This document shows, piece by piece, positions 3,923-23,165 of a stretch of DNA of 64,000 bases; within the stretch, counting starts at the first letter, position 1; every line of letters starts with the position of its first letter. The notes beneath the pieces are model-generated. The model made no database searches. It was given only the letters and a program-made list of their open reading frames with translations, and was not told where the DNA came from. The DNA is taken from contig JAGRNR010000009.1 in the NCBI GenBank assembly GCA_020440645.1, positions 5,092 to 69,091 of the forward strand, given 5' to 3'. Source of the stretch: a bacterium. GTDB lineage: Bacteria > 4484-113 > JAFGCY01. The translations under genes and the position numbers were made by a program.

Positions 3923-4170
3923 CACATCAGCATTATTACCGGAAATTCTAGGGATGAAACCTAATGCGCATTTACACCCGCCATGGATGTTGATTTTCCC
4001 AACATTTAACTTCTGCCCCATCGCAAACCCGGAATTAACCGGTCTGATGAGAATGTAATGTGTCGAGCGCTGGTATGGTCTATTGGACCGTGTAACTCCC
4101 TTCCGGAGCTTTATCGCTAACAGGCATGCAATATGCCGTGGTGCTGATGCAACCTGCTCGTCAGGCTTGA

Positions 4171-6244: not shown

Positions 6245-6247
6245 GCC

Positions 6248-7495: not shown

Positions 7496-7511
7496 ATACC
7501 ACCCTGCTTGC

Positions 7512-8879
7512 CTAGCCGTCCCCGCTGTCCATTCCCGCCTCATTCTCTCCGCGGCTGGCCTGCTCCGGCGCACTGGGCCGCCTGAGCGGCTGGGGCAGGT
7601 CGGAGGATCCACCACGGCGTAGCTCCTGCGGGATGTCGGACGGTCCGTCCATCTTGTGCAGGTACAGCGACTGGCTCGGGAAGGCGAAGTCAACGCCGAT
7701 CTCGGCAAACAGGTCCATGATGCGCAGCATCAGGTCCTCGCGGATGATCAGGTAGTCCGCCCAGACAGCCGTATTGGCAAAGCAGTACACGAGGATATCC
7801 AGCGAGCTGGCACCGAAGTCGGTGAAGTGCACCAGATGGAAGCGCTGGTCGATGCCGCTGTGCTTTTCGATGATGTCGCGAATGCCATCCACGGCCTTGC
7901 GCAGCCTGGTGGCATCCGCGTCATAGGTGATGCCGATCGTCAGGTTGATGCGGCGCATGTCGCGCACGCTGAAGTTCTGGATGTTCTCGTTGGTGACGAT
8001 CTTGTTCGGCACGCTGACAACGGTCTTGTCAAAGCAGCGGATGCGCGTGGAGCGGATGCCGATCTCCTCCACGTCGCCCTCCACGCCGGCCATCTTGATC
8101 CAGTCCCCGCGCTTGAACGGGCGGTCCATGAAGATCATGAAGCTGCCGAAGATGTTGGCAACGGTGTCCTGCGCGGCGAAGGCCAGCGCCAGGCCGCCGA
8201 TGCCGACACCGGCCAGCACTGCGGTGATGTCCCCGCCCCAGCTCTGCACGCAGGTCAGGATCACCAGCAGGATGATCAGCACCTTGGCGGTGTCGCGGAT
8301 CATCGGGATGAACTGCCCGTCCAGTACGCTCGTGCTGTCCGGCCGCTCCTTCTGGCTCAGCCAGCTCAGCGCGACCTCGACGACGCGGAACAGGATCATG
8401 CCGACGTTGACGATCAGCCAGGTTGTCAGCAGCGACCACACGATCGCATTCGCGCGGCCGGGCAGGTCGATGAAGGCGAAGGCCAGGAACAGGCCCCAGA
8501 TCATCACGAAGGTGCCGATCTGCTTGCGCAGTGCGGCCAGGACCCGGTCGTCATACTTCGTCTCGGTACGTTCAACGATCGGCTTCAGGTAGCGGTCCAT
8601 CACCTTCTTCGCGATCTGGCTGATGAACAGTGCCAGCAGCAGGAAGAATGCCGCGGCCAGCAGCCCGAAGGCGTTGAGGCCGAAGACGGTGGTGTTGTTG
8701 AGCTGCCTGTAGGTGCTGGTCACGTTGGCGCCCAGCACGCGTTCTATCAGTTCGTTGGTCTTCTGGCGGGTTTCCTGGCGAGCGCTGTCCGAATCCGGCA
8801 CCAGCAGCGGTATCTGTGCCTGGCCCTCCTGCGAGTCCGCCTGTGCGTTGTCAGTGCTCTGCTGGAGAAGTAGGAGCAT
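7512..8879 (-). CDS. mscS: Mechanosensitive ion channel, MscS family (about 455 aa)
   Basis: ORF 7512..9119. The start is more likely the internal ATG giving MLLLLQQS (TATAAT-like sequence 7 nt upstream), which avoids overlap with divergent deoC. Contains the MscS core (GDWIKMAGVEGDVEEIGIRSTRIRCFDKTVVSVPN) preceded by TM helices. Confidence 0.8.
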   Translation of the reverse strand: MLLLLQQSTDNAQADSQEGQAQIPLLVPDSDSARQETRQKTNELIERVLGANVTSTYRQLNNTTVFGLNAFGLLAAAFFLLLALFISQIAKKVMDRYLKPIVERTETKYDDRVLAALRKQIGTFVMIWGLFLAFAFIDLPGRANAIVWSLLTTWLIVNVGMILFRVVEVALSWLSQKERPDSTSVLDGQFIPMIRDTAKVLIILLVILTCVQSWGGDITAVLAGVGIGGLALAFAAQDTVANIFGSFMIFMDRPFKRGDWIKMAGVEGDVEEIGIRSTRIRCFDKTVVSVPNKIVTNENIQNFSVRDMRRINLTIGITYDADATRLRKAVDGIRDIIEKHSGIDQRFHLVHFTDFGASSLDILVYCFANTAVWADYLIIREDLMLRIMDLFAEIGVDFAFPSQSLYLHKMDGPSDIPQELRRGGSSDLPQPLRRPSAPEQASRGENEAGMDSGDG

Positions 8880-8940
8880 GCGGCCATTATACAGTCGGTA
8901 TTTCTGGCAGCGCTGCTGCGGCAGGCCATACAATGTCAAC

Positions 8941-9612
8941 ATGTTCATGCGACCGCCCGCTGATGCTGCATTGCACACGAGGCTTGACCAGGCATTCCTC
9001 AAGGCCGACCCGGCTGCCACGGTGGAGGCCCTGCGTGCCCAGGTGGAATTGGCAACACGCCTGCAGCTGCGCAGCCTGTGCGTGCCGCCGCTGCTGGCCG
9101 GCACGGTGAAGAAGCACAACCCGCAGCTCAGGGTATCGACCGTGGTGGCCTATCCGCTCGGGCTGGAAAGCGCCAGCTGCAAGTACTTCTCGATCGAGGA
9201 ACTGATGGAGCAGGGCATTGACGAGTTCGACGTCGTGCTGGACCTGTTCGCGCTCGTGAATGGCAACATGGCGAAGCTGGCGGCCGAGGCCGGCAAGCTC
9301 GGCACGCTCTGCCGCCGCCAGCAGCGGATGCTGAAGGTGATCATCGAAACCCCGATCCTCAATGAGGCTCGCATCACTGAAGTGGTACACGTGCTGCGCG
9401 ATGCCCCGGTGGACTGCGTCAAGACCAGCACCGGCTACGGCCGCGATGCCACGAAAGTCGAACATGTGGAGCTGATCCGCCGGGAACTGGGCGACGACAG
9501 GCTCGTGAAATGCAGCGGCGGAGTGCGCAGCAGGGAGGATGCCCTGCGGATGGTGGATGCCGGTGCGGACATCATCGGCACCAGCAGCGCCGAGGCGATC
9601 CTCGCTTCCTAG
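8941..9612 (+). CDS. deoC: Deoxyribose-phosphate aldolase
   Basis: ORF 8713..9612 contains the DeoC fold from MFMRPPAD onward (223 aa, the typical DeoC size). Motifs: VVAYPLG, KVIIETPIL, DCVKTSTGYG and GGVRSREDALRMVDAGADIIGTSS. Confidence 0.85.
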   Translation: MFMRPPADAALHTRLDQAFLKADPAATVEALRAQVELATRLQLRSLCVPPLLAGTVKKHNPQLRVSTVVAYPLGLESASCKYFSIEELMEQGIDEFDVVLDLFALVNGNMAKLAAEAGKLGTLCRRQQRMLKVIIETPILNEARITEVVHVLRDAPVDCVKTSTGYGRDATKVEHVELIRRELGDDRLVKCSGGVRSREDALRMVDAGADIIGTSSAEAILAS

Positions 9613-10070
9613 ACCCCGATCTCCTCGCGGTCCATGCCGACCTGCTCCATCAGCGGGAATGCCATCCAGTACAGCAGGCAGGTGAATACGGCAGCGACGC
9701 TGCTCATCACCCCGGCCGGCCAGCGGTGGAAGTCATTGCTGAAGGTGAAGTACAGCCACATCCCGCCCAGGATCAGGCAGACAACGCCGGCGATTGCGAG
9801 GAAGCGGCTCGTGCCGCTGCTTTCCAGCGTGAACTGCCAGCGTTCATGGTCGCTCGTATCCATGTCCCAGTAGACCACGCCCAGCAGCAGCTGGTAGATT
9901 CCGCCGAGCACCAGCGCCCAGCTGCACATGTAGCTGAAGCCGATGATGCCGTGGTTGAAGCCCTTGAAGATCACCACCGTGTCGGCGGCGTCAATCCAGG
10001 GCAGGCGCGGCCCATTGACCAGCACGAATGCCGTGCAGACTATCGCAGCTATCAGGTAGAGGCTTCGCAT
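9609..10070 (-). CDS. Hypothetical integral membrane protein (153 aa, about 4 TM)
   Basis: Clean hydrophobic-helix pattern. 4-nt tail-to-tail overlap with deoC. Confidence 0.55.
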   Translation of the reverse strand: MRSLYLIAAIVCTAFVLVNGPRLPWIDAADTVVIFKGFNHGIIGFSYMCSWALVLGGIYQLLLGVVYWDMDTSDHERWQFTLESSGTSRFLAIAGVVCLILGGMWLYFTFSNDFHRWPAGVMSSVAAVFTCLLYWMAFPLMEQVGMDREEIGV

Positions 10071-10116
10071 CCCGTTTGATTCTATCCCGGAATCCGCTTG
10101 AATTCCGTGACACTAT

Positions 10117-11265
10117 TCAGACATTGTCCATGCCCACGGTGTTCCCGCCGCCCGGTCCAAGCGCATCCAGCCAGTCACAGAAAGCCTCCAGCTCCTGCAC
10201 GCTGATCTCATGGCCCCCATCAAAGCTGAAGCGGGTCACGGGGCAGCCCTGTTCCTCGAGGAAGTCCGCCAGCATCTCGCTTTCAGCCGGCTTCACGGCG
10301 CTGTCGCGCAGGCCATGCCCCGAGAACACCGGAAAATCGAGTTCGCGGCGCGGCAGTTCGTCATTCACCGCGAGCGTGGTGCTGAAGCAGGCCAGCGCGT
10401 CATACTGCCCGCTGCGGGTCAGGGCGCAGTAGCTCGCCAGCATCCCGCCCTGGCTGAAGCCGGCCAGCACCACAGGGCCGATGCGGAAATGCTCTCGCAT
10501 CCTGGCAACCACATTGCCGACGTACTCCGCATTCTGTTCGAGGTACTGCAGGCGCAGCTCATCGCTGAGGCTGCCCGGCCACCAGATGCGCGAGTCCTGG
10601 TGGTCGCTGAACACCGGGTAGGCCGCCGCCGGGGCCGCCATGATGTAGTCCCTGTGCGGCATCTGCTGGCGCCAGGCAGCGATGTTCTCCGGCGTACCGG
10701 TTGCCCCGTGCAGCATCACCACGAGCGTGTATTCGCGCTCGCTGTCAAAGTCTTCCGGCAGGAAGTAGCGCACGCTGCCCATGCTGCCCATCGGCACTAG
10801 CAGCGTCTCACCCATCTGCTCGCGGTAGCGCAGCTCACGGCTGCGCAGCACCTCGGCCGCCATCCGGAAGCTGTAGTCCTCGCGCACGTTGTCAAAGCGC
10901 GGGTCGTCAATCCGGGCACTGATGTTGCGCAGCCCGGCCTCCTGTGCGAGGCGCAGTGCATCCGATGCCAGGCTGGCCCGCCCGAGCTGGCCATAGCAGC
11001 CAGCCAGGCGCAGCAGCACCTCGAAATTCGAGGCATCGGACTGCAGGGCCGCGATGTAGCAGGCCGCAGCCTGTTCCAGTTCGCCCTGGTTCTCATGCTG
11101 CAGGCCCATCAGCACATAACTGGCCCGGTCGTTGTCCAGTACGGTGAGCGCATCCCCGGCCAGCGGGTCAATCTCATCCGGGCTCAGGTATTCCCACTGC
11201 GCGTGTGCCACCGACAGTGACAGCAGTGCGGCAAGCAGGGCCAGCATGGCAATCCGGTGGATCAT
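10117..11265 (-). CDS. Secreted TPR-repeat protein fused to an alpha/beta-hydrolase (phospholipase/carboxylesterase family) domain
   Basis: Start chosen at the internal Met of MKMIHRIAMLALLAALLSLSVAHAQ (signal peptide; GGAGG upstream). TPR-like N-terminal half. C-terminal half has HGATGTPENIAAW and the GxSxG nucleophile elbow GFSQGGMLAS. Confidence 0.7.
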   Translation of the reverse strand: MIHRIAMLALLAALLSLSVAHAQWEYLSPDEIDPLAGDALTVLDNDRASYVLMGLQHENQGELEQAAACYIAALQSDASNFEVLLRLAGCYGQLGRASLASDALRLAQEAGLRNISARIDDPRFDNVREDYSFRMAAEVLRSRELRYREQMGETLLVPMGSMGSVRYFLPEDFDSEREYTLVVMLHGATGTPENIAAWRQQMPHRDYIMAAPAAAYPVFSDHQDSRIWWPGSLSDELRLQYLEQNAEYVGNVVARMREHFRIGPVVLAGFSQGGMLASYCALTRSGQYDALACFSTTLAVNDELPRRELDFPVFSGHGLRDSAVKPAESEMLADFLEEQGCPVTRFSFDGGHEISVQELEAFCDWLDALGPGGGNTVGMDNV

Positions 11266-11311
11266 CTTCATTTCCTCCACTCCCCCCTGGAGCATTATGA
11301 CAGCCGCAGCT

Positions 11312-12352
11312 TCAGTGGCGTGACCCGAGCTCTGACAGGATCTGCTTCAGGTCCGCCAGGCAACGCTGCTGCCCCGCCGGGCTGCGTCCGTCCACCTTGC
11401 GCACCAGGTCAAACCACGAGTAGGCCAGCACGTTGTCAGCCCCGGCATTGAAGCCGGCCTGCACCATCGCGCGCATCTGCTCGAGCGTCGGGAAGCTGGC
11501 GGAATTGCTGCCCTTGCCGTACATCCGCCAGTCGAAGCTCTGGAACACGAGGATCAGCGGCTGCGATGGCTTGCGCAGCTCATTGGCGCGGCGCACCAGT
11601 GCGTCCACCTCGTAGCTGATCGCCTCGATGCTGTGGCCATCATCCAGCCAATGCGCACCGACGGGGTAGCAGTCCACCATCACCCAGTCGCAGCAGTCGC
11701 GGATCATGCTGCGCATGCTCTGCTCGAACTGCTCATCATGCTGGAGGTAGTCCGGGGTGCCGTGCGGATAGTTGCGGCTATCAAAGCGCCGGTTCATCTC
11801 ATGGCGGTCCGGCAGCTGGTTCCAGACGCAGATCTGCGGCCGGTCGGGGTCGATGCGGCGGATGCTCTGGTACAGGTCGCGCATCTGCCCAAGCGACAGG
11901 CTGTATTTCTCCGTGCCGTCCACCCCGCTGAGCATCGGCAGGATCTCATCATGCACATACCAGGCCCCGATCTGCTCCTCGTTGCGCAGGGCCTCGACCT
12001 CAGCCAGCGCCCTGGCAACCTGTACGGAGGATGTGCGCGGGGTAGCACCTTCGAGGGCATTGAACAGGCTGTAGCCGATGCTGATCCCCTCGCGCCTGGC
12101 AATCGCCATGTAGGCATCGAAGTTGTCACGGTCGGCCGGGCCTTCCGGCCACTGCAGCGCGTAGTCAATCACGAAATTGACACCGCTGTCGGACAGCTCG
12201 CTGAACTGCTCGTTCACCTGAAGCAGGTTCCAGCAGCCCATCGAGATGTAACAGCCCACGAGCCGGTTGGGGTCTGGTGTGCTGTTGGCAGCCAGCGCCC
12301 TGCCACCGTTCAGGCAGGCGATCAGGATCAGGCTGGCCATCAGGGTCCTCAT
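11312..12352 (-). CDS. Secreted hypothetical protein (346 aa), possibly glycosyl-hydrolase-like
   Basis: Signal peptide MRTLMASLILIACLNGGRALAANS. Operon member, with a 4-nt overlap with the upstream deacetylase gene. Function not assignable from sequence alone. Confidence 0.55.
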   Translation of the reverse strand: MRTLMASLILIACLNGGRALAANSTPDPNRLVGCYISMGCWNLLQVNEQFSELSDSGVNFVIDYALQWPEGPADRDNFDAYMAIARREGISIGYSLFNALEGATPRTSSVQVARALAEVEALRNEEQIGAWYVHDEILPMLSGVDGTEKYSLSLGQMRDLYQSIRRIDPDRPQICVWNQLPDRHEMNRRFDSRNYPHGTPDYLQHDEQFEQSMRSMIRDCCDWVMVDCYPVGAHWLDDGHSIEAISYEVDALVRRANELRKPSQPLILVFQSFDWRMYGKGSNSASFPTLEQMRAMVQAGFNAGADNVLAYSWFDLVRKVDGRSPAGQQRCLADLKQILSELGSRH

Positions 12353-13452
12353 TGCTTTTGGTTGAGCTTGCGCATCACGACTTCAGTGGTGCCGGTCGGG
12401 ATGTTGGCAATCAGCATGTCGCCGCTGCGGCGCACAGAGCTGACCGGCTTGCCGTCGGCCAGCACCTCGGCCTGCTCCCAGTCAGCCGGGACGGCGCACT
12501 GCACGGAGATCACGTCCCAGTAGTTCTGGTAGTCCGGCAGCTGGCTGATCTTCGCAATCATGTAGTCCTTATCGAAATCAAGCAGTTCCAAGGTGAACTG
12601 CCGGCTCTCCAGCATGTAGCGGGCCACATTCCTGATCGGGGCCACCCAGACACGGTCCCCGAAAGATGCGAGGTACTCGTAATGTTCGACGAAGTCGTTG
12701 TAGGGGCGCGGACTCCAGCCCACACCGGGCTCGCCCGCCTCACCGATGCCGTGGCACTGCTCGATCATCCAGCCCTGCTTGCTGATGGCAAGGTCCGTCG
12801 TGCTGTTCCACATCCACATTGGCAGGATGTCCTGGTTGGCCCAGCTGTAGAGGTGCATCAGCGGCGGGTTGGCGGAGCAGTTGCGCTGGGCGATGTCCTC
12901 CCTCTCCTGCGGGCCACTGCGGGCGAACATGTATCCGAACTCAGCAGCGGTGTGGAAATTGCCGTAGTGGTACTGCTCATAGGGGTAGATCAGGGTATCC
13001 ACCTGGTCCAGGCCCTCGATGTTATCGAGCAGGAACCGGTGGCAGGTGCCGATCTCATCGCGCACCACTTCCTCGCTGCTTTCCGCCATGTTGAGGTGCG
13101 TCTTCGAATGGTTGGCGATCTCATGCCCATCGTCGAAGGCTTGCTGCAGCTGTTCCTTCCAGCCCTTGCGCTTGACGATGGTGGTGGAGACGATGCCGAG
13201 CGTGACCTTCCAGCCGTACTTGTCCCACAGCGGCATGCCCCGCTCCCAGTGGTCCAGCGAGCCGTCGTCGAAGGTCAGGCTGACCGCACCCTCCGCGCCG
13301 TTGTACCAGCGGCAGATTTCCGGCTTCGGGCGCCATCGCTCATCAGTCTGGGGCACCTGGTCCTTCTGCGGGATCACGATGATGTCTCCCTGGGCCAGCG
13401 CAGTGCCGCCCAGCAGCAGCATCAGCAGTAAAAGGGATAGTGTCTGTCTCAT
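12349..13452 (-). CDS. Polysaccharide deacetylase (NodB homology, CE4 family), secreted
   Basis: Signal peptide MRQTLSLLLLMLLLGGTALAQG. NodB motifs VSLTFDDGSLDHW and DDGHEIANHSKTH. Confidence 0.8.
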   Translation of the reverse strand: MRQTLSLLLLMLLLGGTALAQGDIIVIPQKDQVPQTDERWRPKPEICRWYNGAEGAVSLTFDDGSLDHWERGMPLWDKYGWKVTLGIVSTTIVKRKGWKEQLQQAFDDGHEIANHSKTHLNMAESSEEVVRDEIGTCHRFLLDNIEGLDQVDTLIYPYEQYHYGNFHTAAEFGYMFARSGPQEREDIAQRNCSANPPLMHLYSWANQDILPMWMWNSTTDLAISKQGWMIEQCHGIGEAGEPGVGWSPRPYNDFVEHYEYLASFGDRVWVAPIRNVARYMLESRQFTLELLDFDKDYMIAKISQLPDYQNYWDVISVQCAVPADWEQAEVLADGKPVSSVRRSGDMLIANIPTGTTEVVMRKLNQKQ

Positions 13453-13530
13453 AGGCGTTGTCGGCTGGAGATTCTACCCGCGGACAGCCGTCCGCGCTTC
13501 AAATATGGATGGACTCGAAGCTAATTCCGT

Positions 13531-15027
13531 TCAGCGGAAGGGGTAAACAGGCACCTTGATCGGTGAGATCAGGTCGGCTTCCTTGCGCAGGATATTCGTC
13601 ACCACCGGGTAGGAACTGTGCCAGAACGGGAAACCGGTCGAACCCTGCACCTCTCGGCCGTAGAAGCTGCGGTTGATCTGCAGCGTAAGCTTGGTGTCCG
13701 CCGGGCCCATTGCCTTGCCGAACTCGGTCATCTCGCCTGCCATGTAGTAACTGTTGTAGTGGGTTTCCTTGCGCACGATGGCCGGGATTACCAGCGGCAG
13801 GTCGTGTCGGCGCATCTTGTCCTTGCCACTGTCGGTCAGCTTGAATTCGAAGTCCGCGAGGATCTGGACGGAAGGATCCGGACGAACGGTCACCACATCA
13901 AACCAGTAGGTGAAGGTGCTCGGGCGGCTGCCCTGCATCACGTCCATTTCCATGTAGTCGGTACGGGGCACGAACAACATGCCGCCCGGTGCCACGTCAT
14001 CCGCGTCCGTCAGCACGAAGAATTCGTCCTCGCCATCCTTGCACAGCAGGTAACCGGAGCCGGTCAGGTCCCAGTCCTTTCCATGCTTTTGCTTGTACAG
14101 CTCAAACAGCCACCAGGGCACATCAGTGACATCGCCGAAGTCCACGAAGTAACGACCGATCCAGTGGGTCCAGTCCACCCCGAAGATCTCTTCAAGCCGG
14201 TCCCGCAGTTCCTCATCCGTCGGGGATGCCAGGGTATTGAATTCAGCACAGATCGTGCGCCCACCCTGGTCGAGGAAGCCCTCGATTGCGGTGATCTCCT
14301 CAGGTTTCATGCCTCCGTAGATCTTCGGTGAGTAGATCGTATGTGCGATGTTATCGCCCCAATAGTCGCTGCGGAACTGCCAGTAGTCAGCGCTGTAGAC
14401 GCCATAGCTGTCACAGATGTAAAGCAGGTCACGGTCCGCAAGATCGGCGGAGTCGATGTAATCAAATCGCCAATGTACATCATTCTTGAGGCGGGCATCC
14501 TCCGCGGGATTGCTGCTGCTTGGCACCGGCCCGACGAAGTTCGGGTTGAATTCCTGCGAGAACATCGCGTTTTCCTGCTCAGGGGGCGCAAGGATCCTGT
14601 CATCCGGCGGCGGGTAGAAGCCGGTGTAGTCCAGGTCCTCCGCATAGAAGCGGTTGTCGGTCTGCTTGGTCGGGTCGACGAACTTGTTATTGGTCAGCAG
14701 CCAGAACAGGCCGCGGTGTTCGCGGTAGTCCTGGAACGGCACCGTCTTGTCCACGATCATCATCTTGAGCGGGATGTCCGGCGTACGCTCCCAGAACAGG
14801 TGCGGAATCAGCACGCAAAGGTAGATGATCAGCGCCAGGATCAGGATCGTGTGCAGGCGCCGGCTCGTGATGAAGGCCACAAGAAAGGGCTTCTTGCGCG
14901 GCTTGCCGATGCCTTCAGCTTCGCGCCGGTGGCGGGCCTTGCGGTCCGGCGGCGGCACGAGCGTGGCAGTGGCCGTTCCACCCGGCTGCTGCTCCTCCTG
15001 GTTGTCTCCCTTAATCAGGTCACTCAT
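13531..15027 (-). CDS. Hypothetical membrane-anchored protein (498 aa), conserved operon partner of the GT2 synthase
   Basis: Single TM (LHTILILALIIYLCVLIPHLFW) after a basic N-terminus, then a large extracytoplasmic domain. Lies between the GT2 and CE4 genes in the same orientation. Confidence 0.6.
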   Translation of the reverse strand: MSDLIKGDNQEEQQPGGTATATLVPPPDRKARHRREAEGIGKPRKKPFLVAFITSRRLHTILILALIIYLCVLIPHLFWERTPDIPLKMMIVDKTVPFQDYREHRGLFWLLTNNKFVDPTKQTDNRFYAEDLDYTGFYPPPDDRILAPPEQENAMFSQEFNPNFVGPVPSSSNPAEDARLKNDVHWRFDYIDSADLADRDLLYICDSYGVYSADYWQFRSDYWGDNIAHTIYSPKIYGGMKPEEITAIEGFLDQGGRTICAEFNTLASPTDEELRDRLEEIFGVDWTHWIGRYFVDFGDVTDVPWWLFELYKQKHGKDWDLTGSGYLLCKDGEDEFFVLTDADDVAPGGMLFVPRTDYMEMDVMQGSRPSTFTYWFDVVTVRPDPSVQILADFEFKLTDSGKDKMRRHDLPLVIPAIVRKETHYNSYYMAGEMTEFGKAMGPADTKLTLQINRSFYGREVQGSTGFPFWHSSYPVVTNILRKEADLISPIKVPVYPFR

Positions 15028-15050
15028 ATCCAGTCACTTGCTCCCGTGGA

Positions 15051-16490
15051 TCAGGATCCTGCGGTACGGAATCCACCGCGCCGGATCGCACCCCACAGCT
15101 TGCGGAAGCCGCCGAGGTACTCAAGCATGGCCTGCAGGCGCCAGATCGCATTGATCTGGCGGAAGCCGAAGTTGTACAGGAAGCCGCCCCAGAGCAGCTT
15201 GAACAGGTCGGATGTCCGCTGGTAGCGGTGGAAGCTGAGCTCCTCCACGAGCACCGTGATCACGGTGAACATGAAGCCCAGTGACATGCTCAGCAGGATG
15301 AACATCAGCATCCATTCCAGCGAGAGCACACCGGCCCACCAGAAGATCACGATCAGCACGTAGCCGAACAGCTCGACGATGCAGCCCAGCATCTCGAATA
15401 TAAGGTAATAGGGCATGCCGAACATGCCCAGTGCGCCGAAGCGCGGGTTGAACATCATTTCGCCGTTGTAGCGCAGGCTGTCCACCAGGCCCTTCTGCCA
15501 GCGGCGGCGCTGGCCGGCGAGGCTCTTCATGTCCTCCGGCACCTCGGTCCAGCAGACCGGGTCCGGGTTGAAGAACATCTTGAATTCCTGCCGCTTCTTC
15601 TTGAAGATGCGGTTGAGGCGCACCACCAGCTCCATGTCCTCGCCGATGGTGTCCTCGCGATAGCCGCCGACCTCGATCACGGACTCCTTGTGGAACATCC
15701 CGAAGGCACCGGAGATCAGCAGCACCACACCCATCTGGGCGAAGGCGATGCGGCTGGAGAGGAATGTCATCAGGTACTCGACCGTCTGGGCCAGTGCCAG
15801 CCAGTTGGTGGCGATGTTCACTTCCTTGACGCGGCCGTAGTCCACCACGCAGTTGTTCGCCACGCGGATCACACCGCCGACGGCGATCATCGTGTCCGGA
15901 TGCTCAATGAAGGGACGCATCGTCTTCAGCAGGGCGTCGGAGTCGAGGATCGAATCCGCGTCCAGCGTACAGAAGTAGGGGTACTGGCTGACGTTGATGC
16001 CCACGTTGAGCGCACTGCTCTTGCCGCCGTTGGGCTTGTCCACCACCACGAGGTTAGGGTGCATGCGGCTTTCGTAGATCGCCTTGACCGGCTCGGTCTC
16101 GATCTTGCGCTGGTAGATCTTGCTCACCGGCACGAGGTCGAAGGCCTCAATCAGCACCTGCATGGTGTTGTCCTTCGAGCCGTCGTTGACCACGATCACC
16201 TCGAACTGCGGGTAATGCAGGGTCAGGAGCGAGCGCACCGACTCCATGATCACCTTCTCCTCGTTGTAGGCGGGACAGAGGATGCTCACGGGCTTGGTCA
16301 GCGATGTCTTGAACAGGGCGTGCAGGTCCACCACATTCACATAGTGGCGGTAGCGGCCGAGGTTCATGATGCCGATCAGGAAGAATGCAATATACGAAAT
16401 GATCAGGCCGAGGGTGTACAGGATGAAGAACCCCGAGAGCCAGAGGATAACGATGATCGCATAGCTGTTATCAAGGTCATAGCCAAACAT
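15051..16490 (-). CDS. Processive family-2 glycosyltransferase (PgaC/IcaA/cellulose-synthase-like)
   Basis: GT2 motifs: VVNDGSKDNT, TLDADS, GEDMEL and the processive-synthase QRRRW (QxxRW). Multiple TM helices at both ends. Confidence 0.85.
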   Translation of the reverse strand: MFGYDLDNSYAIIVILWLSGFFILYTLGLIISYIAFFLIGIMNLGRYRHYVNVVDLHALFKTSLTKPVSILCPAYNEEKVIMESVRSLLTLHYPQFEVIVVNDGSKDNTMQVLIEAFDLVPVSKIYQRKIETEPVKAIYESRMHPNLVVVDKPNGGKSSALNVGINVSQYPYFCTLDADSILDSDALLKTMRPFIEHPDTMIAVGGVIRVANNCVVDYGRVKEVNIATNWLALAQTVEYLMTFLSSRIAFAQMGVVLLISGAFGMFHKESVIEVGGYREDTIGEDMELVVRLNRIFKKKRQEFKMFFNPDPVCWTEVPEDMKSLAGQRRRWQKGLVDSLRYNGEMMFNPRFGALGMFGMPYYLIFEMLGCIVELFGYVLIVIFWWAGVLSLEWMLMFILLSMSLGFMFTVITVLVEELSFHRYQRTSDLFKLLWGGFLYNFGFRQINAIWRLQAMLEYLGGFRKLWGAIRRGGFRTAGS

Positions 16491-17629
16491 CAGTTATCAC
16501 CCTCCGTGTCACGGCTTCCCGGCAGCTCCCGCTCCCGGCTCGGGGTGGCGGCGGATTCAAGCTGCTCTTCCCCGAAGAAGCGGCTGAGGTTACCGTTGGA
16601 CCGCTCGAGCTGGTAATTGGCCACATCCCTGGCGAAGTCATCATCATCACGCCGGGCCTGGTGCAGGATCTCACCACCTCTGCGTCCATAGGCCGCCAGT
16701 GACTGGGCTGCGTTGCGGCGTACCCAGTAGCTCGGGTCGGACAGCGCATCCCGCAGGATCGGCAGGCCGTCCTTGACCTGCATGGTGCCCAGTGCCTTGA
16801 CGGCCTGGGCCCGGATCTCCCAGGAACGGTCCTTGGAAAGCCGCAGGAACTCGGGGATGCTGCGCGGGGAGGCGATCTTGCCCATCGACTTGATGGTGCG
16901 GATCACCTTTTCCTTATGGGAAGAGCGCAGCACCTCATGCAGCTGGTCCACCAGCCGGTATTCCTGCAGGTCGCCGACAAGGTCAATCGCCATCAGCTTG
17001 GACTCAAGGGCGAAATCCTGGTGCTCCAGCATCTGCTTGAGGGGGACAATGGCCTGGCCGCGCATCTTCTGCACAATTTCCACCAGGCGGGTGGTTTCCA
17101 TCAGTTCGGGCCGGTTGAGGATGCTCAATAGAGCGGTGCCGGCCTCGGGCGTACCAATCATTCCCATGCTGCGCGCGGCGGTGAAGCGTACTTCCATCCG
17201 CTTGTCGCGCAGGTTGTTTGACAGGATCGGCACCGTTTCCTTGAGTCCGTAGATGCCAAGCTGCATCGCGGCGATGTCACGGATGCGCCAGTCCCAGTTA
17301 TTGAGACGGCGGGCGGTGCGGTTGAGCAGTTTCAGGCGGTCAGCGAGGGTCAGGAGCTTCTTGCGCTCCGAGCCTGTCAGCTGGCGCAGCATCCCGAGGA
17401 TCATCTCCTCAGCGAGGTCGACGTGGTTGCCGATGCTGGAGATCATTTCCTCAATGGAGCTGTCACCGCTGAGGTAACGGGCGAACACGGGCAGGAGCTC
17501 GGCGCGGCGGTTGCTGGCCCATGTGTTGTGGCTGGCCGACATCATCCGCTGAACGACGATGATCAGGAACAGCAGCGCTGAGTTGAGGAAAATTCCCGCA
17601 ACCAGATATTGCACGCTGTCAGCAAACAT
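16490..17629 (-). CDS. HEAT-repeat (PBS-lyase HEAT-like) protein with N-terminal TM segment
   Basis: Repeats of the form EVRFTAARSMGMIG, EIRAQAVKALGTM and WVRRNAAQSLAAYG. 1-nt overlap with the GT2 start. Confidence 0.7.
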   Translation of the reverse strand: MFADSVQYLVAGIFLNSALLFLIIVVQRMMSASHNTWASNRRAELLPVFARYLSGDSSIEEMISSIGNHVDLAEEMILGMLRQLTGSERKKLLTLADRLKLLNRTARRLNNWDWRIRDIAAMQLGIYGLKETVPILSNNLRDKRMEVRFTAARSMGMIGTPEAGTALLSILNRPELMETTRLVEIVQKMRGQAIVPLKQMLEHQDFALESKLMAIDLVGDLQEYRLVDQLHEVLRSSHKEKVIRTIKSMGKIASPRSIPEFLRLSKDRSWEIRAQAVKALGTMQVKDGLPILRDALSDPSYWVRRNAAQSLAAYGRRGGEILHQARRDDDDFARDVANYQLERSNGNLSRFFGEEQLESAATPSRERELPGSRDTEGDN

Positions 17630-17697
17630 TGGTTAACCCCGCTCCGATCCTTTCTTTTTCCGGGCGATGCCCCGCCCGTCACTCCAACATTAGTACG

Positions 17698-18111
17698 TCA
17701 GCCTGCCTGTGCAGTACCTCTGACATGCTTCAGGGCGTTGTACAGTCTCGCAATCAGCACGTTGATGCTGAACGGGATGGTGACGTAGTCGACGCATCCC
17801 AGCCGGAACGCATTGAGAATGTCATCCTCATCCTCCCGGGCGCTGATCACGATCATCGCCCCGGGTTCGTTGACCTTCTCACGCTGCTGGATCTCCCTCA
17901 TCACCTGAAATCCATCCAATTTCTGGATGAGGATATCTATCAACAACAGGTCAAAGGTTTCCCGCTCCATCTGGTCGAGCGCTTCAATGCCGTCAACGGC
18001 CCGACTGACCCTGAAGCCCTGCCGTTCCAGCTTGTATGACAGAATGCCAAACAGACTGTCATCCTCGAGTACGACAAGGATCTTCGGGTTGGAGACTGGG
18101 GTAGAATCCAT
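17698..18111 (-). CDS. Single-domain response regulator (CheY-like receiver, about 137 aa)
   Basis: ORF 17698..18171. Start is more likely MDSTPVSNPKILVVLEDD. The receiver Asp context is DLLLIDILIQKLDGF, and the conserved Lys lies in VDYVTIPF. Confidence 0.75.
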   Translation of the reverse strand: MDSTPVSNPKILVVLEDDSLFGILSYKLERQGFRVSRAVDGIEALDQMERETFDLLLIDILIQKLDGFQVMREIQQREKVNEPGAMIVISAREDEDDILNAFRLGCVDYVTIPFSINVLIARLYNALKHVRGTAQAG

Positions 18112-18171
18112 TCCCAAAATCACCTTTCGATAGTATGTGCCCTGATTTGAGCGACTGATTCTACCACACAC

Positions 18172-18243
18172 ATATTTATATGTGAAACGATTTGATTGTA
18201 CATAATGTAATCTTAGTTTAACTAAAGTTTAATAATAGACAAT
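18172..18243. promoter_or_regulatory. AT-rich divergent promoter region between the REC-regulator/EPS operon (minus strand) and the glycoside-hydrolase-like gene (plus strand)
   Basis: A strongly AT-rich stretch (tatgtgaaacgatttgattgtacataatgtaatcttagtttaactaaagtttaataatagacaat) in an otherwise ~65% GC genome. Near-palindromic elements include tgtacataatgtaat. Confidence 0.45.
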
Positions 18244-20775
18244 ATGAACAGTCAGTTTTCCCTGACTGTCAACACTAAGTGCAAGCACCTTGTTAATACA
18301 TGGTTTATCATTCTGGCAATACTCTGCTGCGCGGAGGAGCACGTGTCTCACACAACCCGGAACTTGAAACTTGTCGCAATTGCGTTGACAATTTGCATGC
18401 TTGCTGCGACTGAATCTCAGGCAGCACCTGATGTGCCAACACGTGCCGGCGAGAACTTCCTCGAGATCCGCCAGCCGGATGGAAGCTACAAACCGATCTT
18501 CGTGAAGGGTATGAGCCTGTCTGCGGCACTTCCCGGCAAGCACCCCAGTGAATTCCCACACGACGAGCAACTCTTCCGGGACTGGCTGAAGAAACTGGCG
18601 GACATGAACTGCAATGTGATCCGCCTTTATACAATTCTGCCGCCCGAAGTCTATCGCGCCCTGCGCTACCACAACACCACCTATCCGGACCAGACCATCT
18701 GGCTGATCCAGGGCTGCTGGGTCACTCCGCCGACGGACCCCGACTACGATTTCTGGGGCCAGAAGTTCAACGATGAAGTTGAGCTGAACTCGCGCCATGC
18801 AGTAGACCTGGTCTATGGAAATGCGAACTTTGATGACAGGCCGGGCTGGACGGGCGGCCGCTATGACGCGGATGTGTCCCCCTGGCTGCTGGCCTGGCTG
18901 TGGGGCCGCGAGTGGGAACCCGATGACATCGAGCGCTTCCACGAGCTGACCAACCGCCGCGAGTACAAGGGCCGCTACATCAGCGCGATCGATAAGCAGC
19001 CGATTGACTGCTGGCTGGCCAAGATGTGCGATTACGCCGTTTCCTACGAAATGGACCAGTACAACAAGCAGCACCCGATCACCTACAGCTCATGGCCGGT
19101 GACTGACCCGATGGAGCATGTCAGCGAGAGCAAGCTGTCCGTCAACTCGGCCGAGAATGAGGGCCGCGTGGACATCTTCAGCAGTGACACGATCCAGATG
19201 ACCGTGAAGGACTTCACCGTCTCGCCGGACTTCAAGGCCGGTGTGTATGCCTCATACCATATTTATCCTTACTGGCCCGACTTCTTCGACAATGAGGTCG
19301 AGTACAGCCTGTGCAAGGACCGCTTCGGGGTCAGCAACTACTACGGTTACCTGACCCACCTGAAGGAGCATTACGGCACGATGCCGCTGCTGGTTGCCGA
19401 GTATGGCCTGCCCAATGGTCCGATGCCGGCGCACAAGCAGAAGCAGGGCCTGCACCACGGCGGCCACTCCGAGGAGGAAGTGATTGACGGCATGGAACGG
19501 CTGACCTATGACATCTGGGACAGCGGCTGCGCCGGTGCGATCGTGTTCGCCTGGATCGATGAGTGGTTCAAGAAGACCTGGATCTGGGCTGATTTCTATG
19601 ACCCCTGGGATGACCGCCGGCTTTGGTACAACCAGTATGACCCGGAGGAGAACTACGGCATGATCGCCCTGCTGCCCGGCGAGGGTGGCCCGAACAACAC
19701 GCTCAGCGGCAATGACGCTGAGTGGGAGGATGTCAGCGTCCTGCCCGGCGATTCGGTGGCCGTCGCTGACAACGCCCCGGTGATCACGAGCGTCAAGGCG
19801 ATGCATGATGAAGGCTGGTTCCACCTGCGCATCCGGCTGGACAACTTTGATGACTGGGACTTCGACAAGACGGAGCTGAGCATCGGTTACGACATCCTCG
19901 ACAGGCTGGGTGGCAACTTCGCCTGGCCCGGCCCGCTGAAGTTCCTCAGTGACAGCGGCCTGGAGACCGTAGTGCAGATCAAGAGCGGCCAGGCCTACAT
20001 GTACCAGACCGAGACCTGGCGCTTCTGGCGACCCTTCAATGATGAGGTGTCCAAGTCCATCTCGCTCGGTGAGGCCAAGCCGCACTACCTGCAGATGGAG
20101 GAGAACCGCTGGAGCTGGTTCGAGCCCTGGGTGGAAACCAACATCTACCGGCTCGGGCGTGACGGGACCTTCTTCCCGTCCCAGTCCTTCAAGCTCAACC
20201 CGCTGCCGCGCGGCACCCTGATCGAGGGCCAGCCGCGATACACCCAGCAGGCAATCTGGAACTCCGACCCCGATAGCAAGGTAGTGGAGATCCGCATGCC
20301 CTGGATCCTGCTCGGTTTCGTCGGCCCGCACCAGCGTCGCGTGTTGCAAAGCGATATCGACGAGCCCTCGAAGAATTCAAGTGTGGTGACTGATGGCATC
20401 GGCGTGGGACTGGCGATGTCCAGCGCGCGCGGTGATGCGCTTGCGGTCTGGCCCGGCATGGATGTCTATGACGCGGACGACCCAAACAGCATCCTCAGCT
20501 CACAGTTCGACGGCTGGAACCGCATCCTGACCAGCAAGAGCGGGATCTACACCTGGGACGAGTGGGGCGTGGAGGATATCCGGTACCACGGACGCATCAA
20601 GCCGATCTATTACGCGATGCGTGACCTGTTCGGAAGCATTGAACAGGTGCGACCACTTTGGAAGGATGGGCCGCAGCGCCAGCCGGTTCCGGATGGCACG
20701 GAGATGCCGGAGACGCCTCCGCTGGCTGAGCCCCTCAAGATCGACCACGCGGCGATCCTGCGCCAGCAGAACTGA
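18244..20775 (+). CDS. Large secreted glycoside-hydrolase-like protein (TIM-barrel type, family not assignable)
   Basis: 843-aa ORF. A possible alternative TTG start near 18364 would give MKLVAIALTICMLAATESQAAP (signal peptide). It has a candidate catalytic-Glu context LLVAEYGLP and is rich in Trp and aromatic residues, as is typical of carbohydrate-active enzymes. Divergent from the EPS operon across an AT-rich spacer. Confidence 0.6.
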   Translation: MNSQFSLTVNTKCKHLVNTWFIILAILCCAEEHVSHTTRNLKLVAIALTICMLAATESQAAPDVPTRAGENFLEIRQPDGSYKPIFVKGMSLSAALPGKHPSEFPHDEQLFRDWLKKLADMNCNVIRLYTILPPEVYRALRYHNTTYPDQTIWLIQGCWVTPPTDPDYDFWGQKFNDEVELNSRHAVDLVYGNANFDDRPGWTGGRYDADVSPWLLAWLWGREWEPDDIERFHELTNRREYKGRYISAIDKQPIDCWLAKMCDYAVSYEMDQYNKQHPITYSSWPVTDPMEHVSESKLSVNSAENEGRVDIFSSDTIQMTVKDFTVSPDFKAGVYASYHIYPYWPDFFDNEVEYSLCKDRFGVSNYYGYLTHLKEHYGTMPLLVAEYGLPNGPMPAHKQKQGLHHGGHSEEEVIDGMERLTYDIWDSGCAGAIVFAWIDEWFKKTWIWADFYDPWDDRRLWYNQYDPEENYGMIALLPGEGGPNNTLSGNDAEWEDVSVLPGDSVAVADNAPVITSVKAMHDEGWFHLRIRLDNFDDWDFDKTELSIGYDILDRLGGNFAWPGPLKFLSDSGLETVVQIKSGQAYMYQTETWRFWRPFNDEVSKSISLGEAKPHYLQMEENRWSWFEPWVETNIYRLGRDGTFFPSQSFKLNPLPRGTLIEGQPRYTQQAIWNSDPDSKVVEIRMPWILLGFVGPHQRRVLQSDIDEPSKNSSVVTDGIGVGLAMSSARGDALAVWPGMDVYDADDPNSILSSQFDGWNRILTSKSGIYTWDEWGVEDIRYHGRIKPIYYAMRDLFGSIEQVRPLWKDGPQRQPVPDGTEMPETPPLAEPLKIDHAAILRQQN

Positions 20776-20821: not shown

Positions 20822-21051
20822 GGGAATGCGCGCACGGCCGGCGCCGGTCAAATCCGCATCTAATCAGAGCAAGTGGCGCCAGTTGCTGAAGAACACGTAC
20901 CAGCAGCCGTTAAATATCCCAGCAACCACGACCGCGATCAGGATGTAGAGCAGGGTATCCCTGGCTATCCGCATCCGATCAGTATAGTCCATCGGGCAGC
21001 TCGAGCCGGCTGCCGGAAGGTGTCGTGGAATCCACGGGATGGCTCACGGCA

Positions 21052-21825
21052 ATGGATATTGCAAGCCTTGTAGGAGTGCTGATCTGCTTCGGCGGAGTGT
21101 TTGCAGGCTTCTCGATCGAGGGCGGGTCACCGACGCAGCTGATGGCTATCAGCGCTGCATGCATCGTGTTCGGCGGAGCCGGCGGGGCCACGATGGTGGC
21201 CTTCCCGCTGTCTACCTCGATCAACCTCTGGAAGGTGATCATGCAGTGCTTCATGCGCCCCAAGGTCGACCCGATCCCGGTGATCAAGAAGTTTGTCGAG
21301 TTCTCCGAGAAGGTGCGCCGCGAGGGCCTGCTTGTGCTGGAAGAGGATGCCAACAACGAAAGCGACCCCTTCCTGCGCAACGGCCTGCAGCTGGTGATCG
21401 ATGGCAATGACACCGAACTCGTGAAGGACATCCTGCATACGGACATCAAGTTCGTGGAGGAGCGCCACCACGTCGGCCAGGCCTACCTGCAGACGATGGC
21501 GGGCTTCACGCCGACCTTCGGGATCGTGGGCACCGTGATGGGCCTCGTGCTGGTGCTGTCAAACCTCTCCGACCCCGGCAGCCTCGGCCCGATGGTGGCG
21601 GCGGCATTCATCGCCACGCTCTATGGGGTGGGCAGTGCCAACGCCCTTTTCCTGCCATGGGCCTCCAAGCTGAAGATTGCCAGCAAGGAGGAGGTGCTCG
21701 TGCGCGAGATCATGGTGGAGGGCATCCTCTCGATCCAGGCCGGTGACAACCCGCGCATCGTGCAGGAGAAGCTCGCGGCATTCCTGCCGCCCAAGGAGCG
21801 TTCCCACGTCAAGCAGGAAGGCTGA
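21052..21825 (+). CDS. motA: Flagellar motor stator protein MotA/PomA
   Basis: ORF 21025..21825. The MotA N-terminus is MDIASLVGVLICFGGVFAGF. The C-terminal TM3-4 region with the conserved plug/loop is GFTPTFGIVGTVMGLV ... ATLYGVGSANALFLP. Confidence 0.85.
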   Translation: MDIASLVGVLICFGGVFAGFSIEGGSPTQLMAISAACIVFGGAGGATMVAFPLSTSINLWKVIMQCFMRPKVDPIPVIKKFVEFSEKVRREGLLVLEEDANNESDPFLRNGLQLVIDGNDTELVKDILHTDIKFVEERHHVGQAYLQTMAGFTPTFGIVGTVMGLVLVLSNLSDPGSLGPMVAAAFIATLYGVGSANALFLPWASKLKIASKEEVLVREIMVEGILSIQAGDNPRIVQEKLAAFLPPKERSHVKQEG

Positions 21826-21851
21826 CGGGGAAGCCCCGCGAGGAGTGATAC

Positions 21852-22784
21852 GTGTACATACCACAGGCACCACAAGGCAATGAAGGCGGCGATGAGCGCT
21901 GGCTGATCAGCTATGCTGACATGATCACGCTGCTCACCGTCGTGTTCATCATCCTGTTCTCGATGTCCAACATCGAGATGGAGAAGTTCAAGGCCCTCGC
22001 CGAGAGCATGACGGACGGCATGGGTGCCAACCGCAAGAGCACCACACTTGACCCCGAGCAGAGCATCGGGGAGGACGCCAGCACGACACCGATTGACATC
22101 GGCACGATCAGTGGCGGCGAGTCGCCCTCGATCCTGTTCCCCGAGCACCAGACCCCGATCCAGATCTTCCGCTTCCGCCGCATCATGGAGGGCGAGAACG
22201 GGGATGAGGGACTGCTGGAGAAGCTGCGCGACATCCTTGACAACGAAGCCCGCCGGGAAGGCGAGCAGATCATGCAGGAATTCGGGCACGACGAACGCGT
22301 CAGCATGCGCTTCACGGAACGCGGCATCGTGCTGACCTTCCTTGACGACCAGCTGATGTTCGACAGCGGCAGCGCCGACATGAAGCCGGGATTCCGTAAT
22401 GTGCTGGCAGCCCTCGGCTCGGAGCTGAACCGCCTGCCGAACTCGGTCGAGGTGCTGGGCCACACGGATGACCGGCCGATTGCCAGTGCCCGCTACCCCA
22501 GCAACTGGGAACTGTCAGCCGCACGCGCGGCAAGCGTTGCCAGGCTACTGATCGCCAATGGATTCCCGCGGGACAAGGTCAGCGTGGCCGGCTATGCCGA
22601 CACCCATCCGCTGGCGGGCAACGACAGCGTGCATGGGCGGGCCGCCAACCGCCGGGTGGAAATCGTGATCCTGCGGGGCTATAACGAACCGGCCGCGGAT
22701 GACACGGAGGAACCGGCCCAGCCGCTAGTCGGGCCACAGCCCAGCCCGGGCATGCCGGTGCACAGCCTGGGGGCGGGACACTGA
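21852..22784 (+). CDS. motB: Flagellar motor protein MotB (OmpA-like peptidoglycan-binding domain)
   Basis: GTG start with AGGAG 7 nt upstream. N-terminus ERWLISYADMITLLTVVFIIL (MotB plug/TM). C-terminal OmpA-like domain (VEVLGHTDDRPI ... NWELSAARAASVARLL ... NRRVEIVIL). Confidence 0.85.
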   Translation: MYIPQAPQGNEGGDERWLISYADMITLLTVVFIILFSMSNIEMEKFKALAESMTDGMGANRKSTTLDPEQSIGEDASTTPIDIGTISGGESPSILFPEHQTPIQIFRFRRIMEGENGDEGLLEKLRDILDNEARREGEQIMQEFGHDERVSMRFTERGIVLTFLDDQLMFDSGSADMKPGFRNVLAALGSELNRLPNSVEVLGHTDDRPIASARYPSNWELSAARAASVARLLIANGFPRDKVSVAGYADTHPLAGNDSVHGRAANRRVEIVILRGYNEPAADDTEEPAQPLVGPQPSPGMPVHSLGAGH

Positions 22785-22785
22785 G

Positions 22786-23097
22786 ATGGAGGATGCATGG
22801 TACAGCAGGAACTGGTTCAGGCTGGTAGTCCTGCTGCTGCCGGTCTGCCTGGTCGTGCTGCTGGCCTGGGGCTGCCCAGGCGGGGAAGGCACCGGGTTTG
22901 GCCAGAATTTCATGGACGTTGCCAGTACCGGGCACAGCACGATTGACGACTACCGCTACGTGGCGGACAGCAGCCGGCACCTGTACTGGCCTAACACGCC
23001 GAAGTACCGCAACCGGATCAGGAGAGAGGACCGCGTGTACATCCTTGACTATGACACGCTCAAGGAGTTCCACGGCTACAAGCCGGGAGAGAAATAG
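22786..23097 (+). CDS. Small hypothetical membrane protein (103 aa) in the mot cluster
   Basis: Starts 2 nt after the motB stop. One TM segment (WFRLVVLLLPVCLVVLLAWG). Confidence 0.45.
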   Translation: MEDAWYSRNWFRLVVLLLPVCLVVLLAWGCPGGEGTGFGQNFMDVASTGHSTIDDYRYVADSSRHLYWPNTPKYRNRIRREDRVYILDYDTLKEFHGYKPGEK

Positions 23098-23165
23098 GAC
23101 ACAAGTTCGAAAACTGCAGGTTATAGATACTGTTGAGTTGAACCCCCGAAGAGAGGGATTTTTAT

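Follow-up and report, generated by a model that had tools for sequence, protein, structure and literature searches.

To our knowledge, few synthase-dependent polysaccharide systems have been described: those for cellulose, poly-N-acetylglucosamine (PNAG), alginate and Pel, and some others. Synthase-dependent polysaccharides underlie much of biofilm biology. The present analysis concerns a gene cluster at positions 10117 to 20775 of a 64,000-nucleotide stretch of bacterial DNA (contig JAGRNR010000009.1 of assembly GCA_020440645.1; the whole stretch is referred to as the window), which encodes a membrane glycosyltransferase of family 2 (GT2), a receiver (REC) protein, a HEAT-repeat protein, a membrane-anchored protein of no named family (D) and a large enzyme resembling glycoside hydrolases (GH), designated H. 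An earlier note, made from the DNA alone, had taken the cluster for a polysaccharide locus of the GT2 synthase type that fits none of the pga, ica, bcs or pel layouts, and family tests agree. The locus is considered here, with fair confidence, to represent a widespread and so far undescribed synthase-dependent glycan system built on a REC-HEAT-GT2-D-H core, acting by a mechanism that is proposed below. All eight open reading frames (ORFs) claimed for it are present, and are listed with their spacer and one further ORF (lengths in amino acids, aa):

10117-11295, minus strand: A, 392 aa, tetratricopeptide repeats (TPR) with an Abhydrolase_2/Esterase domain, predicted secreted
11312-12352, minus strand: B, 346 aa, member of a small unnamed family, predicted secreted, possibly a lipoprotein
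12349-13452, minus strand: C, 367 aa, polysaccharide deacetylase of carbohydrate esterase family 4 (CE4), predicted secreted
13531-15027, minus strand: D, 498 aa, single-pass membrane protein of no named family
15051-16490, minus strand: E, 479 aa, processive-type membrane GT2
16490-17629, minus strand: F, 379 aa, cytoplasmic HEAT-repeat protein with an N-terminal membrane anchor
17698-18171 (longest ORF, 157 aa), minus strand: G, stand-alone REC protein, likely start ATG 18111, 137 aa
18112-18343: divergent AT-rich spacer (promoter region) between the REC gene and H
18244-20775 (longest ORF, 843 aa), plus strand: H, clan GH-A-like enzyme, likely start GTG 18344, about 810 aa
9609-10070, minus strand: membrane ORF, 153 aa, multi-pass, a possible distal gene whose place in the operon is uncertain

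Scans against Pfam and NCBIfam uphold the TPR-esterase, CE4, GT2, HEAT and REC calls made earlier, and assign B, D and H to no family. Three proteins had been singled out as unusual, namely the HEAT-repeat protein, D and H; the last two indeed lack any named family.

The evidence that carries the proposed reading is the recurrence of the same set of genes in other genomes. Relatives of D were found in 277 species in a scan that took one genome per species; 80 of these loci were retrieved with 10-kb flanks, and the eight window proteins were searched against their six-frame ORFs. A GT2 of the same type as E, counted at an E-value of <1e-50, adjoins D in 64 of the 80 loci. HEAT lies directly upstream of the GT2 in 60 and HEAT, GT2 and D are contiguous in 60, while a REC-containing protein lies upstream of HEAT in 56. 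In Bacillaceae and their relatives D and H are encoded as one protein of about 1080 aa (53/80 loci); GT2, HEAT, REC and this D-H fusion occur jointly in 45 loci, and all five families together in 47 (45 with H fused to D, two with H nearby). No fewer than 60 of the 80 loci hold a full or near-full module; most of these come from Bacillota, others from Myxococcota and from metagenome-assembled genomes (MAGs) labelled UBP7/Planctomycetota. The window itself holds all five families (genes G, F, E, D and H), with HEAT, GT2 and D contiguous and co-directional. Carriers among the Bacillaceae and Paenibacillaceae include Neobacillus, Metabacillus, Niallia, Mesobacillus, Peribacillus, Cohnella and Ammoniphilus; the others are Clostridia, Myxococcota, the UBP7/Planctomycetota-labelled MAGs and two unclassified MAGs. 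At a locus from Aminicenantes (L005) HEAT and GT2 are encoded about 4 kb away from D. D of the window shares about 98% identity with its counterpart in CP060262.1, a complete MAG labelled 'Planctomycetales bacterium HK-STAS-UBP7_A-1'. The synteny search that the earlier note had proposed, once run, shows the module to recur across the 80-locus set and in four relatives from the same lineage; the system is not peculiar to one organism, being widespread and found in culturable Bacillaceae among others. A full-text literature search, the coverage of which is incomplete, turned up no account of a polysaccharide module that pairs HEAT with a GT2.

Gene fusions join the members of the module in several combinations. 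The protein P0079 is a GT2 followed by transmembrane (TM) sequence and D, with 40% identity to E and 30% to D; P0272 and P0385 are also GT2-D fusions, and P0320 carries HEAT, GT2 and D in a single chain of 1377 aa. Fusions of an N-terminal TPR region with H (TPR::H) occur in many diderm lineages, and one diderm metagenomic contig (L082) encodes REC, HEAT, GT2 and TPR::H without D. Dozens of genomes share the arrangement, and its parts also occur fused, so that it is no product of chance. HEAT, GT2 and D very probably assemble into a single complex in the membrane. The D-H and TPR-H fusions likewise make the divergently transcribed H a core component and no mere neighbour: its earlier description as GH-like stands, and its placing across the spacer as something apart does not, since it is fused to D in 53 of the 80 loci.

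The GT2 encoded by E matches Glycos_transf_2 (PF00535, 84.7 bits), PF13641, PF13632 and Chitin_synth_2. The QRRRW motif on which its first identification relied is confirmed at residue 327, and is accompanied by NDGS at 102, DAD at 177 and GED at 283. Five hydrophobic segments are present, including regions 6-45 and 364-415, which flank the GT-A domain. With these motifs and flanking TM helices E satisfies the general description of processive membrane GT2 synthases, and we infer that it polymerises a glycan processively. The nature of that glycan is less clearly indicated. The best NCBIfam match of E is PgaC_IcaA (TIGR03937), at 141.8 bits (E-value 2.8e-41) over most of the model, whose cut-off is 422.3. 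Scores against the NodC and CelA models are 38.2 bits (under the cut-off of 550) and 35.6 bits (cut-off 699), respectively; the 43 bits obtained with Chitin_synth_2 exceed the Pfam cut-off of 27, yet other families score better. E has GED and QRRRW in common with the NodC/chitin-synthase type. The PNAG- or cellulose-like product suggested earlier is not established.

D has one TM segment (about residues 50-81) with a basic tail ahead of it. Its AlphaFold2 (AF2) model is confident, with a predicted local distance difference test score (pLDDT) of 82.8, and comprises the TM helix and a large extracytoplasmic part, in which one domain is alpha/beta and another beta-rich. Searches of D against the PDB gave nothing beyond chance with the single sequence and no match with a profile. 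Foldseek against the PDB gave no significant match, the best being a ThuA-like protein (E 0.036), whose fold resembles that of class I glutamine amidotransferases. A first search gave 102 clusters for the family; when 1.84 billion representatives were searched with a profile, 803 of them matched at E<=1e-3. The family has invariant residues (Asp, His, Glu, Asn and Arg) and many Trp residues, which suggest a sugar-binding or catalytic site. Two D proteins (P0343 and P0391) carry a C-terminal SPOR domain, which binds peptidoglycan; these fusions are consistent with an extracytoplasmic location of the D domain. D is also encoded alone at some loci, which include L023, L036 and L044 as well as L009, L018 and L033. 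Hosts of such loci are Acidobacteriota, Sericytochromatia and archaeal MAGs (labelled Thermococci and Methanomicrobia), and the genes neighbouring D at L009, L018 and L033 are MMPL, threonine dehydratase-like and Hdr-like genes. The D family may have a second, synthase-independent role.

The reading of the 843-aa protein H as a TIM-barrel glycoside hydrolase, made at the outset from the DNA, is supported in fold by the AF2 model and by Foldseek. A single-sequence search of H against the PDB gave matches at chance level only. In the confident model (pLDDT 84.9) a (beta/alpha)8 barrel spans roughly residues 65-470 and C-terminal beta-sandwich domains come after it. Foldseek against the PDB places LaGH157, an endo-beta-1,3-glucanase of GH157, first (E 4e-14, 12-13% identity), followed by clan GH-A enzymes of GH2, GH5 and GH164. 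The profile of the full H alignment was swamped by TPR matches from fused homologues, and a profile of the H core was therefore built. This core profile finds LaGH157 as its sole match among PDB sequences, at a marginal E-value of 0.0032. In the core alignment Glu386 of H (AEYG) falls on Glu224 of LaGH157 (TEFG), the residue mutated in PDB entry 9g4n, and DEWFKK of H falls on DGWWKG. The candidate catalytic residue Glu223 follows beta-strand 4, and Glu223, Glu386 and Asp439-Glu440-Trp441 are invariant in 59 H sequences, Bacillaceae fusions included. The GH157-like fold together with the invariant Glu223 and Glu386 is the basis of the predicted activity: H is most likely catalytically active, a retaining glycosidase or transglycosylase whose family is akin to GH157 without belonging to it. 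The H family exceeds 1377 clusters, many of them with an N-terminal TPR region. On one Gemmatimonadetes contig (L081), TPR::H (10001-12700) adjoins an Esterase-family gene (8990-9952) and two-component genes, a pair that echoes the esterase and H of the window; no GT2 was found within 10 kb of TPR::H there.

A REC domain encoded just before the HEAT gene is the element common to all versions of the module, the stand-alone REC of the window included. G matches Response_reg (PF00072) at 68 bits and has the EDD acidic pocket, the acceptor Asp (LLLID) and the Ser of a receiver; F matches HEAT_2 at 110 bits and has a TM segment at residues 8-26. GGEEF occurs in 23 of the upstream REC proteins in the 80-locus set, and the operon of Niallia taxi encodes, in order, a REC-GGDEF-REC protein (541 aa), HEAT, GT2, D-H, REC and a hybrid histidine kinase. 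The locus had been credited with a single-domain response regulator of its own. This is correct for the stand-alone REC of the present genome, whereas in Bacillaceae the domain lies inside a diguanylate cyclase protein. In a published precedent, the single-domain response regulator CheY7 of Myxococcus xanthus binds a HEAT-repeat protein, Cpc7 (PMC11514114, citing Darnell et al. 2014).

The remaining genes of the cluster are restricted to narrower groups. The corresponding loci of four relatives from the lineage are as follows, with the divergent H placed to the left of a slash:

L083 (closest relative): H / REC, HEAT, GT2, D, B, esterase, 153-aa ORF; no CE4
L084: REC, HEAT, GT2, D, B
L085: CE4 protein, TPR, H / REC, HEAT, GT2, D, B-like
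L086: H / CE4, REC, HEAT, GT2, D, B; the CE4 is 48% identical to C

The divergent layout of H and REC is common to the window, L083, L085 and L086. In the search of the 80 loci, no locus from Bacillota or Myxococcota yielded CE4, B or the esterase. B lies directly after D in each of the four relatives. Its family has just 40 clusters and an invariant WYVHDE motif, and B itself has a lipobox-like LIAC at residue 10. Three of 26 members match Glyco_hydro_2_C weakly (E 0.005); weak GH42 and GHL13 matches also occur, the latter in one member (PF14883, E 0.043), and we take PF14883 to be the Pfam family of the PgaB C-terminal domain. Against the PDB, single-sequence matches of B were at chance level and the best profile match was only GH158, at an E-value of 1.8. 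On these weak clan GH-A hints B is probably a TIM-barrel glycosidase-like enzyme. Kinship of B with H was considered and dropped, the hhalign probability being 7.5%.

C matches Polysacc_deac_1 (PF01522) at 62.2 bits, and the CE4 motifs MT1 (TFDDG at 60) and MT2 (HSKTH at 115) are confirmed; at the MT3 site it reads IYPY (155), without the Arg of RxPY, and an extension of about 190 aa follows the CE4 domain. CE4 homologues occupy three different positions across the lineage relatives, L085 and L086 among them. The absence of CE4 from L083 and from all Bacillota loci indicates that deacetylation is a lineage-specific accessory step, while its repeated recruitment argues for N-acetyl groups on the polymer, in this lineage at least. 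The GT2 and CE4 pair had at first been regarded as the core of the locus: the synthase keeps that place, and the unit that is conserved around it is REC-HEAT-GT2-D-H rather than one defined by CE4. By the same token, of the undescribed pathway for a deacetylated polysaccharide that had been proposed, 'undescribed' stands and deacetylation as a general trait does not. A matches PF02230 (57.8 bits), PF00756 and TPR families, and the motifs of its candidate triad (GFSQG at 279, HGLRD at 327, GGH at 360) are present. The esterase fusion had been counted among the unusual parts of the locus; it is present, and it recurs only in a near-identical genome (L001) and in L083. Downstream of the esterase gene, after 46 bp and in the same orientation, comes the 153-aa ORF, which Pfam assigns to no family. 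Its positional counterpart in L083 shares 84% identity with it, as against 68% for D. The ORF was found only in the closest relatives, which rules it out as a PgaD analogue.

Gene content, motifs, folds, synteny and fusions are established by these comparisons, and from them we infer a complex, a regulatory path, a set of activities and a polymer that together make up the proposed mechanism. The GT2 would polymerise a beta-linked sugar from a nucleotide sugar, the sugar being probably N-acetylated in this lineage, and translocate the chain through its own membrane pore. HEAT, on the cytoplasmic face of the synthase, would relay the state of REC to the GT2, a step suggested by gene order, by fusion and by the REC-HEAT precedent; in Bacillaceae the signal to HEAT and GT2 would probably also include locally made cyclic di-GMP (c-di-GMP). 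D, anchored beside the synthase, would take up the emerging chain outside the membrane as a non-homologous analogue of BcsB or PgaD. Subsequently H may trim, release or remodel the polymer. In this lineage B, as a second glycosidase-like enzyme, and the CE4 N-deacetylase would process the chain further, and in this genome and its closest relatives the TPR-esterase may act on the polymer too.

Several observations weigh against this account. No other module gene is present within 10 kb at 15 of the 80 D-family loci, and three such D-only loci that were inspected (L009, L018 and L033) have unrelated neighbours; D is tied to the module non-exclusively, and the 15 loci rule it out as a universal module marker. 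The hints as to the polymer conflict, the GT2 being nearest to the PgaC/IcaA and chitin-synthase models and H nearest to a beta-1,3-glucanase, and most carriers of the module lack CE4. The locus codes for neither an outer-membrane porin nor a long TPR scaffold, although genes for an OmpA-type MotB and for MacB lie nearby, and this bears on export beyond the periplasm. In the window genome and L083 only, the conserved Lys of the receiver G is Ile (VDYVTIPF), where other module RECs keep KPF; owing to this loss classical phospho-switching may be altered, impaired or lost here. D has no significant structural match, and the guide or co-synthase role proposed for it rests on position, fusions and topology. 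The HEAT-REC and HEAT-GT2 contacts are drawn from gene order, fusion and precedent, and for every member of the system the reading relies on sequence and predicted structure.

Other explanations of the locus differ chiefly in the polymer that they assume. The absence of an outer-membrane export component from the locus, the SPOR domain on some D-family proteins, the tethering of H to the membrane as a fusion in Bacillaceae and the MscS gene that adjoins the locus in the window genome and L083 would all suit a periplasmic or cell-wall glycan (such as a polymer of the envelope or septum, or a glucan for osmoprotection) that H and B remodel or transglycosylate, in place of a secreted exopolysaccharide (EPS). 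Nevertheless, such a glycan is unlikely, since biofilm matrix polymers are typically controlled as in Bacillaceae, through diguanylate cyclase, REC and hybrid kinase, the TPR::H fusions of diderms resemble the periplasmic scaffolds of export systems and the MscS adjacency is unseen in more distant relatives. A divergent PNAG pathway of the pga/ica type is distinctly unlikely. In such a pathway the GT2 would make beta-1,6-linked N-acetylglucosamine, CE4 would partly deacetylate it and H or B would play the part of the PgaB C-terminal hydrolase; the rank of PgaC_IcaA as best NCBIfam match of the GT2, the CE4 in the window and the weak GHL13 match in one B-family member all point that way. However, the GT2 score is far under its cut-off, no small PgaD/IcaD-like partner stands beside the GT2, a PgaA porin is absent, L083 and all Bacillota carriers lack CE4, HEAT, D and H have no counterparts in pga/ica, and the fold of H is nearest to GH157 and neither to GH153 nor to GH20.

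The fold of H has also to be considered from the opposite side, since GH157 endo-beta-1,3-glucanase is its best structural match and its sole PDB profile match, with a catalytic Glu aligned, and it might be taken as the cognate endo-beta-1,3-glucanase of a curdlan- or laminarin-like beta-1,3-glucan. The identity of 12-13% and the marginal profile E-value make this highly unlikely, as does the range of specificities spanned by clan GH-A folds; moreover, the GT2 scores higher on synthases of N-acetylhexosamine polymers (PgaC/IcaA, chitin synthase) than on CelA, and the recurrent CE4 of the lineage implies N-acetyl groups. It is barely credible that the genes are coincidental neighbours and that H, B and the esterase are catabolic enzymes unlinked to the GT2. 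H does lie on the opposite strand, and H-family genes also occur away from a GT2 (in L081 and in the JW859 genome), but the D-H, GT2-D and HEAT-GT2-D fusions exclude coincidence, gene order is kept in at least 60 genomes of different phyla, and B directly follows D in all lineage relatives examined.

The layout of the cluster differs in part from its first description. The genes had been said to be mostly overlapping, whereas overlaps occur at just two of the six junctions (F/E by 1 nucleotide, C/B by 4 nucleotides) and the remaining minus-strand junctions are gaps of 16-78 bp. The AT-rich spacer is borne out, with a GC content of 0.46 at 18000-18499 against about 0.61 elsewhere. By hydropathy A, B, C and H have hydrophobic N-termini resembling signal peptides, and the GTG start at 18344 gives H a clean one, MSHTTRNLKLVAIALTICMLAATESQA, its homologues being 804-818 aa long. 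A promoter-like sequence, TTCACA-17-TAGAAT, lies on the minus strand at 18186-18158, within the longer REC ORF. From this start-site and promoter-like evidence the longest ORFs of both H and REC are probably too long, reaching into the spacer. Beyond H lie stator genes for MotA, MotB and FliL (21025-24071, plus strand), and on the other side, at 5021-9119, an MscS channel gene and two MacB/FtsX permease genes. These flanks of the locus recur in L083 and not in L084-L086. A functional link of the locus with the adjoining MotAB/FliL or MscS genes was discarded, the adjacency being kept with the closest relative only. As the flanks are unrelated, the limits first set for the locus are right. A few kb away, at 1628-4021 on the minus strand, a 797-aa protein with ankyrin repeats (PF12796) is encoded; bacteria seldom have such repeats.

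The system of REC, HEAT, GT2, D and H favoured here also raises a bolder proposition, which in our estimate falls a little short of an even chance: that it constitutes a new class of synthase-dependent secretion, in which HEAT is a GT2 activator controlled by the receiver and possibly by c-di-GMP, D is a co-synthase, H represents a new glycoside hydrolase family and the product is possibly a new polymer. If the reading is true, three unannotated families (D, H and B) gain a place in glycan synthesis, a new regulatory coupling runs from receiver domain through HEAT protein to synthase, and a matrix or envelope polymer that is possibly new is made. H may define a new glycoside hydrolase family of practical interest. 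The module can be tested directly in culturable, genetically accessible Bacillaceae (Niallia, Neobacillus and Metabacillus) and through the natural HEAT-GT2-D and D-H fusions.

Among the characterised systems, PgaC/IcaA is the nearest family to the GT2 of the module (D,D,D,Q(R)xRW type). As in PNAG synthesis, a CE4 and a glycosidase-like enzyme would act on the product outside the membrane, C answering to the CE4 element (the PgaB N-terminal domain or IcaB), and the diguanylate cyclase control of Bacillaceae resembles the c-di-GMP control of PgaCD. The differences are that the position of PgaD/IcaD next to the GT2 is filled by D (498 aa, one TM segment, no family), that no PgaA-type TPR porin was found between positions 9.4 and 21 kb of the window, that CE4 and hydrolase are separate genes in the window and fused in PgaB, that HEAT, D, the GH157-like H and REC are foreign to pga and ica, and that CE4 is dispensable in most carriers. 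With cellulose synthesis the module shares a processive GT2 with a single-pass partner bearing extracytoplasmic flavodoxin-like and beta-rich domains (by which D may be compared with BcsB), a dedicated glycoside hydrolase and a cytoplasmic regulatory input to the synthase. None of the eight window proteins matched PilZ, BcsB (PF03170) or GH8, and BcsB is absent from the 50 Foldseek matches listed for D, none of which is significant. Unlike in Bcs, D is anchored N-terminally, the hydrolase is GH157-like where BcsZ belongs to GH8, and regulation would run through REC and HEAT. With regard to Pel, no Pel-family protein (GT4 PelF, PelD, PelE, PelG or PelA) was matched, and the sole glycosyltransferase of the locus is the GT2.

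Outside the synthase systems, H has the beta-8 motif D/E-W-(W/F)-K in common with LaGH157 (PDB 9g5g/9fz9). It differs from LaGH157 in that the TM-scores between the two are 0.30 and 0.47, in its greater length (by about 280 residues) and additional beta-sandwich domains, and in being tied genetically to a synthase instead of to a polysaccharide-utilisation locus. CheY7-Cpc7 joins a lone receiver to a HEAT-repeat output partner of the PBS-lyase type, as is proposed for G and F here, F being likened to Cpc7 on the basis of its description. Cpc7 is soluble, and we know of no link between it and a glycosyltransferase. Orthology with a characterised EPS operon fails for pga, ica, bcs and pel alike; lacking their components, the locus is synthase-dependent in its logic and a member of none of them. 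By function and without homology, D would be the counterpart of BcsB or PgaD, H that of BcsZ, the PgaB C-terminal domain or PelA, and the TPR::H fusions that of the TPR scaffolds of PgaA, PelB and BcsC.

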